Made by a program: the position numbers and the translations under genes
In this document: piece by piece, positions 2,922 to 6,849 of the stretch
Position numbering within the stretch: position 1 is the stretch's first letter
Layout: every line of letters starts with the position of its first letter
Source: a virus
Taxonomy: Duplodnaviria > Heunggongvirae > Uroviricota > Caudoviricetes
Reading direction: 5' to 3' (one strand)
Virus record (IMG/VR): IMGVR_UViG_2671180984_000037
Length of the DNA: 8,196 bases
The notes under the pieces: model-generated
What the model saw: only the letters and a program-made list of their open reading frames with translations
Databases searched by the model: none
What the model was told of the DNA's origin: nothing

Positions 2922-3509
2922 TCACTCTCCTTTGATGCGAATGCCAGCAAGCCAGGTTCTTATGCCGATATATTCAGCGTTCCTGAAACCGCTTTTTACA
3001 TATATAAATGGCAAGCGAAGATTGTGACCATTGGCTGCCAGGTAGTCTTTACAACCCTGTTCGGTGAAACAGCAGGTAACGAATTCATCAATATCTTTCA
3101 CAGCAACGCGCCGCCATTTTTCTGGTGGTTCCCGAAAGTTTTCATGAAGTAGTTCGAGACGACGACTTTGGAGTTTATTGGCTTCATTGCCATCTTCATC
3201 AACCCAGACAATCCGGTCATAGTCATAATCAGCATCAACAACAATTTCGCGCTTTTGATACACACAAAACATAGGGTCTGACGTTATTCGATTATCCTGT
3301 GTTCGAATATTTTCACCGATGATGCCAAACGAATCTGGCGTAGGTTTTGTCTGTAACTCTTCGATACGTTCAGCCAGCGCCGCGCACTTGGCCTCAGCTT
3401 CAGCAAATTTACGCACTAGGTACTCAGCGTTTGTTTCGTTCACTTTCAGATCTCGCGGTACACATTTCCCGCGAAGAAACCCTTCCATTTCGAAAACATT
3501 CATGCGCAT
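2922..3509 (-). CDS. Hypothetical phage protein with N-terminal coiled-coil, possibly ead/Ea22-like (193-195 aa)
   Basis: ATG at 3509 (alternative ATG at 3503) overlaps the stop of the upstream HD-domain gene. N-terminal segment AEAEAKCAALAERIEELQ is coiled-coil-like, followed by an acidic D/E-rich region. The Ea22-like label is a tentative memory-based call. Confidence 0.5.
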   Translation of the reverse strand: MRMNVFEMEGFLRGKCVPRDLKVNETNAEYLVRKFAEAEAKCAALAERIEELQTKPTPDSFGIIGENIRTQDNRITSDPMFCVYQKREIVVDADYDYDRIVWVDEDGNEANKLQSRRLELLHENFREPPEKWRRVAVKDIDEFVTCCFTEQGCKDYLAANGHNLRLPFIYVKSGFRNAEYIGIRTWLAGIRIKGE

Positions 3510-4036
3510 TTGCGTAACCCCGATAACTCGTTAAAACGTTCCATAAACATCCCGTAGGCATGGCCTGGTGACAGTGGAATAACTTTGAACATCTCTGTCG
3601 CCGGGATACCTTCCAGTACAGGCCAGAAAGAACCATCATCAAGCCCGAGATCGCGGCGTTCGGTTGCCAGCATAATGAGATCGGCATATTTCACTGGCGT
3701 GCTCATAACAGGAGGTAACCCGTATTTCTCACGGATTACGGCGTCTATTTTTTCTTCCATCCGTTTATAGTCAGGAAGAAGGCGTTTCAGTGGTGCGGGG
3801 ATGTCCTGGCAATATGCTTCTGTTGCATCATGCATTAACGCTTCAAAAGCAAATTCCTGCGGTACCAGCTGGCTGCAAAGCACCGCATGTTGGGCGACGC
3901 TGTAGAAGTGTGAAAGATGTCCTGCAAAGCGACAGATATTTGAAAGGGAAACCGCGATATCGTTAATAACGATGTCGTCTTTATTTATCTTGTCATAATA
4001 AAAATGCTTCCCGGAAAAAGTTTTAATAAATGACAT
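3500..4036 (-). CDS. yfdR: HD-domain 5'-deoxynucleotidase, YfbR/YfdR-like (178 aa)
   Basis: The ORF track begins at a GTG (4063); the in-frame ATG at 4036 with GGAGA 5 nt upstream gives 178 aa. HD-phosphohydrolase motifs are present (SVAQHAVL with the metal-binding His, LMHDATEAY with the HD dyad, then QDIPAPLK matching the GDLPTPVK region of E. coli YfbR). Size and order (120-aa, 274-aa, 178-aa genes) match the yfdP-yfdQ-yfdR genes of the CPS-53/KplE1 prophage as I remember them. Confidence 0.75.
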   Translation of the reverse strand: MSFIKTFSGKHFYYDKINKDDIVINDIAVSLSNICRFAGHLSHFYSVAQHAVLCSQLVPQEFAFEALMHDATEAYCQDIPAPLKRLLPDYKRMEEKIDAVIREKYGLPPVMSTPVKYADLIMLATERRDLGLDDGSFWPVLEGIPATEMFKVIPLSPGHAYGMFMERFNELSGLRKCA

Positions 4037-4129
4037 TTTGTTCTCCACGTATATGCGCTGCACCGCGCTGAATTCTGGTAAAAGGAAGCCCTCACCATCC
4101 GGCGATTATTGAGTAAATTATGTTTCCAT

Positions 4130-4151
4130 AAATGCCCCCGCAGGGGCATTT
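4130..4151 (-). other. Perfect 9-bp stem / 4-nt loop hairpin (AAATGCCCC cgca GGGGCATTT) directly after the yfdQ-like stop
   Basis: Read directly from the sequence. It lies in the 127-nt gap between the yfdQ-like and yfdR-like genes. The downstream minus-strand sequence (AUGGAAAC) is not U-rich, so it is not a classical intrinsic terminator; more likely an intercistronic stabiliser or partial terminator. Confidence 0.35.
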
Positions 4152-4163
4152 GCAGTAATGAAA

Positions 4164-4988
4164 TCAGGCGGTGAAAGTACCAATAAAGGTTTCTACTTTG
4201 CTGTCTTTAAATTTCTCAACAAGCAGATCACGAAATTCGTTAGCCATTTCTTCCTGCACCGCTTCCAGCTGAATAATGCGCAGAACCAGTACAGGACGAT
4301 CGCCAGTGATAATGCTGAGGCGTAATTTAAACGGACGTTCTTTCAGGCCTTCAAACGGAACGCATTTAAATTCAAATGCCACTGGCATAATGTCTTTGGT
4401 CTTCGCTTCGACAGACTCCATCAGGGAGCGTTTGCCGCTGAAGTCATTGTCTTCAAAATCAGCGGTCTGGTTCGCTTCAATTGTGATTTTACGGATCGCC
4501 GCAGCCGCTTTGGTTGCCTGAATGGCGTCACCATTAGCATCAAAGCCCACAAGGTAGTCGGCCCAGTCTTCAATCCATTCTGCCAGTGACTTTTGGGAGT
4601 TACGCTCGCCATTAACAGACAACAGAGCAGAGAACGGTGCTGTCTTTTTCAGTTTGAGAGTGGCGGTGTTATCTGCGTGACCTGGTTCATCAATAGTACC
4701 CAGGTTAAGCACACTGACGGCACGCATATTATCGGCATCGATAAAGCAGCGGGTGCCTTCATCTGCAAGATCTTTAGAATAACGGGTAAAGTCATCGATG
4801 CTGGCAGTGGAAAGCGCACCACGGAAACGGAAGCGATTTAAATTAAATTTTTCCAGATCATGAATGCGGAAATTCTCAGGCAATGCCACAGCATCGGCAC
4901 CAATCTTACTAATAATTTCATTAACACCCTGAGCAGAAATAAGGGCATGGATTTGATTAATTGCGGTTGCGTCTAAGTTCTGAGACAT
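4164..4988 (-). CDS. yfdQ: YfdQ-like phage protein (DUF2303 family as remembered), 274 aa
   Basis: ATG at 4988 with GAGGA 7 nt upstream. The 274-aa length and position immediately upstream of the HD-domain gene match CPS-53 yfdQ. Function unknown. Confidence 0.65.
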
Positions 4989-5053
4989 AATAAGTCCTCA
5001 CTATATAAGGATATTCAGTGATGAGATAAATAATCAGTTAATTAAGAACGATA

Positions 5054-5416
5054 TTAATGACCTGCTGCGCGGAGTTTTCCGTCAGGTTCACCGGCAAGAG
5101 TCAGTAATTGTCCCTGGTCTTCCTGCAGAATAGTCAGGCGACCACCGCGATTGACATACATCGGCGTTTCGGTGGTGTCTTCTTCGGAAATTTTCCCGCG
5201 GTTAGTCGGACGAACATATGAGAGTTTGTGTTTTATTTTCACACGGTTCTCATCAAACGGTTCGATTTCCAGGTTGAGCGAGACCTTCCCTTTGGTTTTC
5301 GTGTTCATCACACCTGAAGCGACTTCACTGAGAACAGCGCCGATTTTGGTTTCAAATACGCCGCCGTCCAGCTCCCCGATAAATGCCTGCACATCAGTAC
5401 TGCGTTCGCTAGCCAT
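5054..5416 (-). CDS. yfdP: YfdP-like hypothetical protein (120 aa)
   Basis: The ORF track extends this frame to 5647 (197 aa) from a non-ATG start. The internal ATG at 5416 has a strong GAGGAG 7 nt upstream and gives exactly 120 aa (MASERSTDVQAFIGELDGG...), matching the remembered size of CPS-53 yfdP. The upstream extension overlaps strongly structured DNA. Confidence 0.55.
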   Translation of the reverse strand: MASERSTDVQAFIGELDGGVFETKIGAVLSEVASGVMNTKTKGKVSLNLEIEPFDENRVKIKHKLSYVRPTNRGKISEEDTTETPMYVNRGGRLTILQEDQGQLLTLAGEPDGKLRAAGH

Positions 5417-5464
5417 TTTGCTGCTCCTCATCATATCGACCCTGCAAGGTCGGTTGGTTTCTCC

Positions 5465-5553
5465 ACAAAACAGAGAAGAGCACCTGCGGTGGCAGCCGCC
5501 CGGGTGGATTGGGTTATGAGCCCGTCGTCCGGTGATGCTCTTCTCTGTTTTGT
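5465..5553. repeat. 18-bp perfect inverted repeat (ACAAAACAGAGAAGAGCA / TGCTCTTCTCTGTTTTGT) around a 53-bp GC-rich spacer
   Basis: Arms at 5465..5482 and 5536..5553 are exact reverse complements, read directly from the sequence. Located in the PL leader 50-140 nt upstream of the yfdP-like start codon. Confidence 0.8.
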
Positions 5554-5599
5554 AAAAAGAGCGGTACCAGCCGGAAGCAAGTGTACAAACTGGTACCGC
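5552..5599 (-). terminator. Terminator/attenuator-like hairpin in the early-left leader: 10-bp GC-rich stem (GCGGTACCAG / CTGGTACCGC), about 19-nt loop, then UCUUUUUAC on the minus strand
   Basis: Inverted repeat 5561..5570 / 5590..5599 read directly. On the transcribed (minus) strand it is followed by TCTTTTTAC (plus 5552..5560). The loop is larger than in typical intrinsic terminators, hence low confidence. Confidence 0.35.
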
Positions 5600-6000
5600 C
5601 AAAGCAGTGGCTGTTGTGGTGGGGTTGTCACTCAGGCGTATGGTCAACCTGACAATCCGGTGTCCTCAACGGGGAAAGAGTAACCCCGCCATACTTACCG
5701 CCGCGCCATTTCGCGGATGACCACAACGCTGAGAGCACTTAGCCAGTTACGGCACCACACTTTGTCGCGGCTCCATAAATGCCCTCATCGTTGCACCCTG
5801 GTCTCTTCCCAGGCGTCAAACCGGATCGCCACGCTGGTTAGGCGTCTTATCAGCATCATCATTGACTTGCACATTCCGGCTACCTGGTTTGTTTGCCCTA
5901 GCAAGGAGTGGATTGTCCCCTTTAACGTCCCCAGACCGCTAACGACGCATGTGCCATACGCCGTGTTACAACCAAATTTTGTTTGAATCTTGCCTGCCTC

Positions 6001-6045
6001 ATGTTTCTTTTGGATACATTATGTATCTCATGGGTACATTGTCAA
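6001..6045 (-). promoter_or_regulatory. PL-type early-left promoter (-35 TTGACA, 16-bp spacer, -10 CATAAT on the minus strand) overlapped by two 19-bp operators
   Basis: On the minus strand, TTGACA corresponds to plus 6040..6045 and CATAAT to plus 6018..6023. Operator-like 7-5-7 palindromes: ATGTATC-tcatg-GGTACAT (6021..6039) and ATGTTTC-ttttg-GATACAT (6001..6019), centres 20 bp apart. The same half-site recurs at the cI/cro divergent region. Confidence 0.6.
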
Positions 6046-6072
6046 GTATAAAAAAACCTGCCGAAGCAGGTT
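6046..6072 (-). terminator. Rho-independent terminator downstream of the cI-like repressor gene
   Basis: Stem AACCTGC / GCAGGTT (6055..6061 and 6066..6072) with CGAA tetraloop, followed on the minus strand by UUUUUUUAU (plus 6048..6056). Sits 13 nt after the repressor stop codon and just upstream of the PL -35. Confidence 0.65.
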
Positions 6073-6084
6073 CATAAATATTGA

Positions 6085-6759
6085 TTAGGCCTTTATTGTG
6101 TATCTTCTTGGTTTTCCCGAGAAAATCACTGTACCAATTATAGAGCAATTACCGTTAATCTTAATGTAAGGCTCAGGCCAGTTTGGGTTTAATGCTTTGA
6201 GATAACGCTGTGTTCCATCTTCTATCAATCGCTTGAAGGTGGTTTCGCCTGTATCGTGCATCAATGCAATAACGTCGTCACCGTGGCAGGCAGGGACTTC
6301 GGGATCAACAAAAATCATGTCTCCAGGGCGGTACTCATCAATCATTGAATCACCAATCACCCGCAAGATATAAGTCATTTCGCCACAGGGTACAGGGCAG
6401 GGATACGTTTCTGCTGTGCTCAAATCAACCTCAGAATAGCCAACTTCTTTCCATGCTCCGGCCTGTACCCATGATATGACAGGGACTAACGTTATTTGTT
6501 TGTTAGTGATTGAAACATCAGGTTTTTTTGTGATGTTCGTTGTCTGGTGTTCTTGATCAAGCCATCCGACAGGCAGGTCGAAACATTTTTCGATGTGGCG
6601 TGCCATGCTGTCACCGATATTTTTAGTAGCGCCATCCCCCATAAACCTGCTGGTTTGGGTTGGCTCGCGATCAATCATGGTGGCAAAGGATGAATTTCCG
6701 CCAACACCATCTCTCAGTTTTCTGGCGTTAGACCGCCGGATGTCATGGATTGTTTTCAT
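6085..6759 (-). CDS. cI: CI-type phage repressor, N-terminal HTH plus C-terminal LexA-like S24 peptidase domain (224 aa)
   Basis: C-terminal domain has the autocleavage catalytic motifs VIGDSM (Ser) and TFKRL (Lys), and a linker Ala-Gly (WVQAGAW) as the candidate cleavage site. Divergent from a Cro-like gene with operators between them. No Shine-Dalgarno before the ATG, consistent with a leaderless PRM transcript as in lambda cI. Confidence 0.9.
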   Translation of the reverse strand: MKTIHDIRRSNARKLRDGVGGNSSFATMIDREPTQTSRFMGDGATKNIGDSMARHIEKCFDLPVGWLDQEHQTTNITKKPDVSITNKQITLVPVISWVQAGAWKEVGYSEVDLSTAETYPCPVPCGEMTYILRVIGDSMIDEYRPGDMIFVDPEVPACHGDDVIALMHDTGETTFKRLIEDGTQRYLKALNPNWPEPYIKINGNCSIIGTVIFSGKPRRYTIKA

Positions 6760-6775
6760 AACGAAATTAAAACCT

Positions 6776-6844
6776 TTGTACCGATAAGGTACAAGTATCT
6801 TGAAGGTTCATTTCAATCATGTAATATGTATACCGGAGGTACAT
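6776..6844. promoter_or_regulatory. OR-like operator/promoter region between cI and the cro-like gene (divergent PRM/PR)
   Basis: 19-bp 7-5-7 palindromes TTGTACC-gataa-GGTACAA (6776..6794) and ATGTATA-ccgga-GGTACAT (6826..6844) share the half-site seen at PL. Candidate PR: -35 TTGAAG (6800..6805), 16-bp spacer, -10 TAATAT (6822..6827), then GGAGG (6835..6839) and ATG at 6850. Confidence 0.55.
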
Positions 6845-6849
6845 GTTGT

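Follow-up and report, generated by a model that had tools for sequence, protein, structure and literature searches.

Orthologs of YfdP, YfdQ and YfdR of Escherichia coli K-12 in the putative early-left operon of a lambdoid prophage: a constant gene pair, an optional HD-domain gene and a structured leader RNA

When examining an 8,196-nucleotide stretch of viral DNA (hereinafter, the window) from a lambdoid prophage that resides beside mlrA in the genome of an E. coli of the O26:H11 type, we found that three consecutive open reading frames are, by sequence, true orthologs of YfdP, YfdQ and YfdR of the prophage CPS-53 (KplE1) of E. coli K-12, and that they appear to be the first three genes of a cI-controlled leftward early (PL) operon. 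Across loci from different species, the constant unit is the yfdP-yfdQ pair, and yfdR is optional. The explanation that we favor for the whole, and to which we assign an even chance, is that the early yfdPQR genes most likely serve in the takeover of host DNA replication. The features that are relevant for this argument are, in the direction of the presumed transcription:

6085..6759, minus strand: open reading frame for a cI-like repressor of the LexA/S24 family (RefSeq 'ymfK: LexA family protein')
6054-6073: hairpin of the cI terminator, with the PL-like promoter just downstream
6018..6045, minus strand: PL-like sigma-70 promoter, TTGACA-16-CATAAT, matching the consensus at 11/12 positions
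6013-6027: 15-bp palindrome GATACATAATGTATC, which overlaps the PL-like promoter and may be an operator
5561..5599, minus strand: terminator-like hairpin (inverted repeat I2) with arms GCGGTACCAG / CTGGTACCGC and a 19-nt loop, running into a U-tract
5433..5560, minus strand: structured leader RNA, 128 nt, directly upstream of yfdP
5054..5416, minus strand: yfdP, 120 aa from ATG, first gene of the putative early-left operon
4164..4988, minus strand: yfdQ, 274 aa, DUF2303 family
4131..4150, minus strand: GC-rich hairpin AATGCCCC-TGCG-GGGGCATT in the 127-nt gap between yfdQ and yfdR, read from the sequence
3500..4036, minus strand: yfdR, 178 aa from ATG, predicted HD-domain phosphohydrolase
2922..3509, minus strand: mosaic open reading frame of the Ea22/YfdS type, 195 aa, the start of which overlaps the yfdR stop by 10 nt

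An earlier note on this DNA had reported three genes of 120, 274 and 178 aa and had likened them to yfdP, yfdQ and yfdR. The genes are indeed present at these places, all on the minus strand, and their identity is borne out by BLASTP comparison with the proteins of K-12 MG1655, in which gap-free alignments contained 119/120 (YfdP), 273/274 (YfdQ) and 174/178 (YfdR, with four differences) identical residues, that is, 99%, 99% and 98% identity to the CPS-53 proteins. The order, lengths and spacing of the genes are the same as in CPS-53 as well. At the DNA level, this prophage and CPS-53 have in common approximately 2.06 kb with 96.5% identity, and a block of approximately 2.0-2.2 kb is also found in phages SfV, SfIV and ST64B and in Stx2 phages. 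The borders of the shared DNA are at 3374/5435 in the comparison with K-12, 3406/5601 with SfIV and 3398/5620 with Stx2a_WGPS2, and beyond these borders the flanks are unrelated; besides the three genes, the traveling block includes the structured leader RNA region of about 200 nt, as well as ~45 codons from the start of the gene that follows yfdR. A megablast search with the segment 3400-5700 of the window showed that 58% of the complete E. coli genomes (3128 of 5426) contain the block, and RefSeq there labels the products 'protein YfdP', 'YfdQ family protein' and 'yfdR: 5'-deoxynucleotidase'. The yfdPQR module is thus already known, both from this annotation and from a publication (PMC4776307). 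The occurrence of the same block in several phages and in more than half of the E. coli genomes indicates that it is portable. Of the portable cassette proposed earlier, the mosaic, mobile character, with borders next to unrelated flanks, is retained, but a fixed three-gene unit is not, given that yfdR is optional.

The prophage backbone differs from that of CPS-53, as had been proposed. The integrase shows 29% identity to the CPS-53 integrase IntS over only 115 aa, and neither TorI nor YfdT has a homolog in this prophage. Conversely, the present copy keeps a full cI/cro region, the PL-like promoter and the leader RNA, all of which CPS-53 has lost. All genes from yfdP to int are on the minus strand, and the early-left run ends at xis and int, so that the hallmarks of a lambdoid PL early-left operon, namely, a sigma-70 promoter, an overlapping palindrome, an adjacent cI gene and co-directional genes, are found together. 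The order cI - leader - yfdP recurs in ST64B, phage LLS and SfIV, and in these phages, as well as in Stx2a_WGPS2, it continues with yfdQ and yfdR; a cI-like S24 repressor gene is also located upstream of the pair in 8 of the 22 loci that lack yfdR. The earlier placement of the genes in an early-left accessory region is correct with respect to early-left, but 'accessory' understates their position because they come first after the PL-like promoter. From the near-consensus promoter beside cI, we infer that yfdPQR should be silent under CI in the lysogen and switched on upon induction or infection; the use of the promoter, its repression by CI and the timing of expression are all deduced here from the arrangement of sequence elements.

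The co-occurrence of the three genes across prophages, which the note had called for analyzing, turned out to be tight for two of them only. On the same strand, yfdQ is immediately preceded by yfdP in the window and at 79 of 80 loci that represent different species, the single locus without an upstream yfdP being cut by a contig end; at 58 of the 80, yfdR comes next. In phage records, YfdQ and YfdP are found in similar numbers (183 and 180) and with the same host spread, whereas YfdR-like HD proteins are found in 324 records with a different one. Other loci contain DEDD exonuclease and SSB genes downstream of the pair and RecT and YqaJ genes upstream of it; in VT2phi_272, the gene order is gam - recT - exo - ssb - yfdP - yfdQ. 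Because the pair is present without yfdR in many phages, inhibition of DnaA, which has been described for YfdR, cannot be its general function, and its occurrence next to SSB, RecT and exonuclease genes suggests that YfdP and YfdQ contribute in their own right to the replication or recombination of phage DNA.

YfdP belongs to the family Pfam PF27127 / phrog_204 (phrog_204 match, 1.2e-49), with the PF27127 match precomputed for all YfdP homologs listed, and is predicted to consist of a long N-terminal helix, three long beta-strands and a conserved tail. A beta-clamp-binding motif in this tail (QGQLFTL) was considered and rejected, judging by eye, owing to the mismatch to the QL[SD]LF consensus; a TTG-extended, 197-aa reading of YfdP is spurious because it runs through the RNA motif upstream of the gene. 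YfdQ matches Pfam PF10065 (DUF2303; 6e-93, 311.4 bits against a cut-off of 26.6) over profile positions 2-269 of 269 and has a homolog of solved structure, PDB 9o7m ('YfdQ Protein', E 8e-45), an unpublished entry for which our literature search retrieved no paper. This entry holds 36 chains, so YfdQ is probably a large homo-oligomer. The YfdQ family comprises 1830 clusters at 50% identity; the representatives of the best 150 are almost all single-domain proteins of ~250-300 aa, along with a few shorter fragments, and no domain fusions were found among them. A handful of YfdP-YfdQ 'fusions' (166-284 aa) in E. coli seem to result from deletions or from miscalling. The models of YfdP and YfdQ gave no informative match to a fold of known function in structure libraries that did not include PDB 9o7m. 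Judged by fold or sequence similarity to a known annealase together with mutually exclusive occurrence with other annealases, YfdQ did not qualify as a phage single-strand annealing protein (RecT/Redbeta, Erf or Rad52-like) either.

In YfdR, the HD signature (H50, H69-D70, E73, D78 and D119) is preserved in 51-52 of 52 aligned homologs, in agreement with the earlier claim of clear HD motifs. With all metal-binding and catalytic residues present, YfdR has probably retained a phosphohydrolase activity, be it as a second function or as an ancestral one. One of its homologs is the HD protein Atu1052, the structure of which has been solved (PDB 2gz4, E 2.6e-13) and to which YfdR is closer than to YfbR; YfdR also matches phrog_318, 'deoxyribonucleoside 5' monophosphate phosphatase', with 7e-110. 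However, its scores with the two YfbR models fall short of the curated cut-offs (Pfam PF12917, 24.3 versus 25.9 bits; NCBIfam PRK03826, 19.9 versus 122), and it therefore is best described as a YfbR-like member of a related HD subfamily rather than a YfbR equivalog. YfdR and E. coli YfbR share, in the aligned core, the HD fold and the H...HD...E...D...D motif (LMHDATEAYCQDIPAPLK versus MYHDASEVLTGDLPTPVK), but YfbR has a tryptophan in the 'RW' pair where YfdR has a phenylalanine (RF, residues 36-37), and DnaA binding, as reported for the K-12 protein, is an added activity of YfdR relative to YfbR.

The proposal that these genes take over host replication draws on the K-12 orthologs. K-12 YfdR binds domain I of DnaA via Phe46 and competes moderately with DiaA and DnaB, and initiation at oriC is blocked by yfdQ and yfdR together with yfdS or yfdT, yfdP not being needed (Noguchi and Katayama 2016, PMC4776307); this view is repeated in PMC12122000. 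The high identity (98-99%) to the K-12 proteins suggests the same mechanism for the present copy. Under this proposal, yfdPQR would be expressed early from the PL-like promoter and kept off by CI in the lysogen; YfdR would bind DnaA domain I and, aided by YfdQ and by either YfdS or YfdT as the downstream partner, would block initiation at oriC; the YfdP-YfdQ pair would play its own part in phage DNA replication or recombination; and the leader RNA upstream of yfdP would tune read-through, processing or stability of the transcript. Several observations temper this proposal. The block to replication was seen only upon multicopy expression, and its authors concede that it could be an artefact of overexpression; deletion of yfdQRST had no effect on initiation; YfdR by itself inhibits only moderately and requires partners; and in pull-downs, YfdQ, YfdS and YfdT did not bind tightly to YfdR or DnaA (PMC4776307). 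Furthermore, the present prophage does not contain the complete set of genes used in that study, given that YfdT is missing and that only the first ~45 aa of YfdS are shared. Specifically, the first 35 aa of the 195-aa open reading frame that follows yfdR are those of K-12 YfdS and the sequence diverges thereafter, only the first ~45 aa are encoded within the shared block (which ends at 3374-3406), the PHROG matches are divided between the N-terminal part and the rest, and RefSeq treats the 3' part as an incomplete pseudogene.

Interference with DnaA is not without parallel: lambda P, Bacillus subtilis SirA and E. coli DiaA and Dps are alike in acting on DnaA, with interference at oriC as the outcome, and SirA and DiaA, as K-12 YfdR, contact the Phe46 patch of domain I (PMC4776307). 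The folds of all four proteins are unrelated to that of YfdR, and lambda P, unlike YfdR, binds domain III of DnaA and loads DnaB.

An alternative, which we consider rather unlikely, is that the main task of YfdR, as a 5'-deoxynucleotidase, is to reshape dNMP/dNTP pools early in infection, DnaA binding being incidental. The invariance of the HD metal-binding and catalytic residues across the 52 homologs argues for selection on catalysis, the PHROG and RefSeq names for YfdR are those of a dNMP phosphatase, and the 324 phage records with YfdR-like hydrolases include numerous large lytic phages that infect Bacillus, Caulobacter, Rhizobium and Stenotrophomonas, in which nucleotide metabolism is a common theme. 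[quoted passage not shown] Conceivably, the block is instead an anti-defence module: the third gene varies among loci, encoding either an HD hydrolase or, in its place, a DEDD exonuclease, and either enzyme could destroy a host immune signal or nucleic acid, with YfdP and YfdQ, the latter probably as a large oligomer, sequestering or inhibiting a defence protein. The immediate-early position is where lambdoid phages keep host-takeover and anti-nuclease genes, and in some loci a T7 gp5.9-like RecBCD inhibitor gene and a gam-like gene adjoin yfdP-yfdQ. Such an anti-defence role nonetheless appears improbable: the YfdP and YfdQ models do not resemble the fold of any known anti-defence protein, no anti-defence phenotype is reported in the literature searched, and PADLOC, which covers defence systems and not anti-defence proteins, returned no matches.

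We attach similarly little weight to the idea that the genes benefit the lysogen by conferring tolerance to oxidative, acid or alkylation stress instead of serving the lytic cycle. In K-12, deletion of yfdQ or yfdS is reported to increase sensitivity to H2O2, and deletion of yfdQ sensitivity to MMS (Wang 2010 and Rooney 2009, as cited in PMC4776307), and yfdPQ is under positive control in stationary phase by the host regulator SrsR, which binds the yfdO/yfdP spacer (PMC9181523). These phenotypes, however, come from a decayed prophage that lacks a repressor, and the shared block, the border of which is 19 nt upstream of yfdP, does not include the SrsR sites. Here and in the active phages, the genes are located behind a cI-adjacent early promoter, and no independent promoter was detected.

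The structure of the leader RNA is well supported. Two inner hairpins are enclosed by a 22-bp outer stem, and between this stem and the Shine-Dalgarno sequence there is a further, short hairpin (fold z = -5.8); compensatory changes are seen in 15 of 40 pairs, pairing is maintained in 97.6% of cells compared to 41-56% in slid controls, and the observed values were reached by 0/500 shuffles. Scored with a covariance model (R1), the element reaches 124 bits here and 110-145 bits at the corresponding position of ~30 other loci, against 26-43 bits on the opposite strand. There is no match in Rfam, none to R1 in CPS-53, where the shared block ends 19 nt upstream of yfdP, and none at E <= 1 in the whole HK022 genome. 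A coding function was rejected since the indels are not multiples of three and the many G-U pairs fit the sense strand only; PHROG 'families' match open reading frames on both strands over this region, which is typical of miscalled reading frames. Immediately upstream, the hairpin at 5561..5599 looks like a terminator; in the alignment, its sequence varies while pairing is kept in other genera, and its U-tract doubles as the base of the outer stem of the leader RNA. The hairpin between yfdQ and yfdR (4131..4150), which was not flagged in the terminator scan, may be a weak terminator or an mRNA stabilizer.

The leader RNA probably controls read-through, processing or stability of the transcript. 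Tentatively, we suggest that it is a previously undescribed cis-acting RNA of the PL operon in N-less phages of the SfV/ST64B/mEp460 type, acting either in read-through, in a manner unlike nut and put, or via RNase III and transcript stability. In the read-through version, it would act on the adjoining terminator-like hairpin and on downstream terminators; alternatively, it would set the expression of yfdPQR as a site of processing by RNase III or as a stability element. The leader of lambda N contains an RNase III site, and the long outer stem recalls such a site. The element is similar to lambda nutL with the N leader and to HK022 putL in its place between PL and the first early-left gene, but nut and put elements adjoin the promoter, whereas the leader RNA is ~450 nt downstream of the PL-like promoter. 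This distance and the lack of an R1 match in HK022 led us to reject homology with put. A lambda-type nut site, as defined by a conserved, CGCTCTTA-like boxA followed by a short boxB hairpin with an N gene downstream, was rejected as well: the boxA-like string CGCTCTTTTTACAA is present in this copy, but GCTCTTT is not conserved at that position in other genera. An N-like gene is neither annotated nor found in the window, and the phages with the leader RNA encode a Q-type antiterminator but lack a recognizable N gene. Finally, GGCGGTAC of the upstream hairpin resembles the ops site of RfaH, but this reading was rejected because the key T is variable and changes in the stem compensate one another.

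The presence of yfdPQR in yet another prophage is of little consequence in itself: the genes are very common, already annotated and in part characterized. What is added here is the constancy of yfdP-yfdQ as opposed to the optional yfdR, the apparent position of the genes at the head of the PL operon, and the structured leader RNA. In Stx-converting and Shigella serotype-converting phages, this block would be the first to be expressed from the early-left promoter, and such active phages are a natural setting for testing the result obtained by overexpression in K-12, that YfdR blocks DnaA. Given that yfdP-yfdQ is a conserved unit beside recombination and SSB genes, functional work should target the pair and the unpublished YfdQ structure. 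The conserved leader RNA has no counterpart in Rfam and occupies the place expected for nutL and N; should read-through or processing be under its control, it would reveal how a large group of lambdoid phages that lack N express their early-left operon.

The ORFs and Pfam matches identify the window as the left arm of a lambdoid prophage, and a megablast search found it to be 100% identical in E. coli O26:H11 and related genomes, where the prophage directly adjoins mlrA.

Features of the prophage left arm, in window coordinates
From 6850, rightward: cro-like and ymfL-like genes
6775-6845: TTGTACCGATAAGGTACAA and ATGTATACCGGAGGTACAT in the cI-cro gap, with common TGTAC/GTACA half-sites, likely operators
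6759-6085, minus: cI-like repressor of the LexA/S24 family (ORF and Pfam)
6073-6054, minus: terminator hairpin just 3' of the cI stop codon
6045-6018, minus: near-consensus promoter TTGACA-16-CATAAT after the cI terminator hairpin (PL-like, the candidate early-left promoter)
6013-6027: perfect 15-bp palindrome GATACATAATGTATC overlapping the -10 of the PL-like promoter, likely operator
5433-5599, minus: structured leader RNA with hairpin, U-tract and three-way-junction motif (fold and covariation)
5416-5054, minus: yfdP, 120 aa (ORF)
4988-4164, minus: yfdQ, 274 aa (ORF)
4131-4150, minus: GC-rich hairpin AATGCCCC-TGCG-GGGGCATT in the 127-nt yfdQ-yfdR gap
4036-3500, minus: yfdR, 178 aa (ORF)
2922-3509, minus: YfdS-like mosaic ORF, 195 aa, overlapping the yfdR stop (ORF)
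Left of the 195-aa ORF, minus, in this order: small ORF, DUF551, DUF4222, excisionase, tyrosine integrase (ORFs and Pfam)

A gene-free gap of 668 nt separates the cI-like gene from yfdP on the minus strand, and neither a gene nor a further promoter was found on this strand between the PL-like promoter and yfdP. The order cI - untranslated leader - yfdP - yfdQ - yfdR - ... - xis - int recurs in SfIV, Stx2a_WGPS2, ST64B and phage LLS, and an N gene is annotated in none of these phages or in this prophage. We infer from the gene arrangement that yfdPQR would be the first genes of a CI-repressed early-left operon, in the place held in lambda by N and the kil/gam/recombination genes. The 10-nt overlap between yfdR and the next ORF suggests that the two are translationally coupled. 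The hairpin in the yfdQ-yfdR gap might be a weak terminator or stabiliser, a reading that would fit the K-12 papers in which yfdPQ is taken as an operon apart from yfdR. Inside the yfdR coding region are an 11-bp inverted repeat (3954-3978), flagged as terminator-like on the plus strand, and a sub-threshold match to Rfam STnc310 (3958-3999; 23 bits vs 40), both of which are probably due to chance. The promoter-proximal part of the leader (5601-6002) is variable and G+C-rich (0.54-0.56); it is replaced in SfIV by ~1 kb with two opposite-strand ORFs, Stx2a_WGPS2 shares only 5778-5992 of it, and an unannotated 89-aa plus-strand ORF at 5717-5986 has no PHROG match.

The earlier note recognized, from the sequence alone, YfdP, YfdQ and YfdR in the three genes and YfbR-like HD motifs in the last; this observation is fully confirmed, and its interpretation at the level of annotation is right. 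The products are identical to those of E. coli K-12 MG1655 at 119/120, 273/274 and 174/178 positions, respectively, with no gaps; the block is present in 3128 of 5426 complete E. coli genomes, and RefSeq gives the matching genomes the same gene names. YfdQ corresponds to DUF2303 over its full length (6e-93). YfdR belongs to the HD-domain proteins, has the structurally solved Atu1052 (PDB 2gz4), also an HD protein, as a homologue, and contains H50, H69-D70, E73, D78 and D119; a loss of the HD residues was looked for in the alignment, and they are kept in 51-52 of 52 homologues from other species. Because its scores against the YfbR models are under the curated cut-offs, YfdR is, as judged by sequence, YfbR-like but not a YfbR equivalog. 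The module, being common, named and partly characterised, is already known and not novel.

The DNA common with K-12 CPS-53 extends from 3374 to 5435, that common with SfIV from 3406 to 5601 and that common with Stx2a_WGPS2 from 3398 to 5620, and the flanks are unlike in each case; the left edge of the shared block is within the gene after yfdR and the right edge is ~200 nt upstream of yfdP. The integrase of the window shows only 29% identity to K-12 IntS over 115 aa, and counterparts of K-12 TorI and YfdT, looked for in the window, were not found. Thus, the proposal of a portable cassette set in another phage backbone is borne out. The 195-aa ORF starts with 35 aa that are exactly those of K-12 YfdS and continues with an unrelated remainder (phrog_3205), its 3' part being annotated in RefSeq as an incomplete pseudogene. 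This YfdS-identical start followed by divergence fits the Ea22/YfdS-type family, which is mosaic (PMC10834534), and the limitation of the identity to the first 35 aa places the mosaic junction of the shared block within the conserved N-terminal segment of this gene.

The block is portable, but the notion of a three-gene cassette has to be modified. Among 80 loci with YfdQ relatives (at least 39% identity, mostly from different bacterial species), yfdP is directly upstream of yfdQ in 79, the lone exception ending at a contig end, whereas yfdR, found downstream of yfdQ in 58, is optional. The 22 loci that lack yfdR include all those outside Enterobacterales (Marinobacter, Photobacterium, Vibrio, Kistimonas and Pontibacterium); their downstream genes include DEDD-type exonucleases (7) and SSB (2), and their upstream genes include cI-like repressors (8), YqaJ (2), RecT (1) and a T7 gp5.9-like gene (1). 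The 933W-like Stx2a phage VT2phi_272, with the order kil - gam-like - recT - exonuclease - ssb - yfdP - yfdQ, likewise has no yfdR. Of the records in the phage collection, 183 contain YfdQ and 180 contain YfdP, the two having the same host spread; YfdR-like HD proteins are present in 324, with a quite different host spread and many large lytic phages included. Therefore, yfdP-yfdQ is a constant pair in the company of DNA recombination and replication genes, and the gene for the HD hydrolase, an independent one, frequently but not invariably accompanies the pair.

AlphaFold2 models were built from 34-35 homologues (mean pLDDT 77 for YfdQ and 79 for YfdP). In YfdQ they predict a mixed alpha/beta core between an N-terminal helix and a long C-terminal helix; in YfdP, a 30-residue helix precedes three long antiparallel strands, and the tail is highly conserved. 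At 50% identity the YfdQ family falls into 1830 clusters, and nearly all of the best 150 of these are ~250-300 aa long, with no extra domains. In Burkholderia phage JC1, a DUF2303 protein was reported as virion-associated and coexists with RecT and YqaJ (PMC9144972), and we therefore reject YfdQ as a recombinase replacement. The furthest assignment that can be supported for YfdQ is an 'oligomeric partner in phage DNA metabolism'. The PDB entry 9o7m, 'YfdQ Protein', consists of 36 chains of a 274-aa homologue (E 8e-45); a literature search found no paper describing it, and it has no entry in the fold-search libraries. This structure is the quickest route to the function of DUF2303.

The suggestion that the module could act on replication is backed by K-12 experiments that the earlier note did not cite. 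There, yfdQRST was isolated because in multicopy it suppressed the over-initiation of an hda mutant, purified YfdR bound DnaA, with Phe46 of DnaA domain I being important, and YfdQRST-enriched extracts inhibited oriC replication in vitro; deletion of the genes had no effect on initiation, and the authors considered an overexpression artefact possible (Noguchi and Katayama, PMC4776307). Later reviews and an eLife paper describe YfdR as a prophage-encoded rival of DnaB for DnaA domain I. In the best-supported mechanism, YfdR, aided by YfdQ, would bind DnaA and inhibit initiation of host replication, with yfdPQR being switched on at the very start of early-left expression. We regard the case for this mechanism as evenly poised, because the evidence comes from overexpression, this prophage does not conserve the partners YfdS and YfdT, and a more general role has to be assumed for the constant yfdP-yfdQ pair.

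[quoted passage not shown] An anti-defence role and a benefit to the lysogen both strike us as quite improbable. It has also been noted that homologues occur in SfV and that the genes may formerly have aided phage growth (PMC4776307).

In E. coli phages, the last ~200 nt before yfdP move together with the block, and in Kosakonia, Mixta, Klebsiella, Citrobacter, Erwinia and other genera the leader DNA is 80-94% identical, YfdP there being only ~60% identical. The leader fold reaches z = -5.8 against shuffled controls, and the structure is supported by an alignment of 26-29 sequences. The 5' part consists of an upstream hairpin of variable sequence and a U-tract, which pairs with an invariant GGAGA at the base of the 22-bp outer stem; two inner hairpins follow, one with an invariant loop, GGCUCAUAACCCAAUCC, and a short 3' hairpin immediately precedes the Shine-Dalgarno sequence, which the structure does not sequester. 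Covariation is strong: both sides have changed, in compensation, in 15 of the 40 pairs, 97.6% of the cells pair compared with 41-56% for slid partners, and none of 500 shuffles reached the observed values. The covariance model (R1) scores 110-145 bits on the yfdP strand vs 26-43 on the opposite one, a difference that, together with the many G-U pairs, identifies the sense strand as the folded RNA.

The leader RNA precedes yfdP in about 43 of 79 loci and is detected by BLAST in 62 phage records, including SfV, SfII, SfIV, ST64B, mEp460 and Stx2c phages; R1 matches strongly in ST64B, LLS, SfIV and Stx2a_WGPS2 and more weakly, at the corresponding position, in loci that lay outside the model-building set, those of Yersinia, Serratia and Rahnella among them. 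It has no match in Rfam 15 even at E <= 10, none in VT2phi_272, where other genes stand between the promoter and yfdP, and none in HK022, which excludes homology to put, the HK022 antiterminator RNA. A boxA-like string in the window copy is not conserved elsewhere. K-12 CPS-53 has lost the leader RNA. The K-12 yfdO/yfdP spacer (9248-9604 in the coordinates of that locus), which is bound by the host regulator SrsR (PMC9181523) and carries four SrsR boxes, TCAGATTTTG repeats, has no homology to the window from 5436 onward; the SrsR sites are outside the shared block, and the SrsR control of yfdPQ in K-12 is not transferable here because the spacer is not homologous.

ORFs that read through the leader (5417-5647, minus; 5489-5683, plus) match phrog_33599 and phrog_3651, of unknown function, and in SfIV a 227-aa 'gp34' extends YfdP across the motif (5649-6329 of the SfIV locus). 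Because insertions and deletions here are not multiples of three, these ORFs and PHROG 'families' are probably miscalls over a conserved non-coding element. Candidate roles for this element are read-through control, RNase III processing or protection of a long untranslated leader from Rho. The leader RNA is the most novel item near yfdPQR and merits a separate look.
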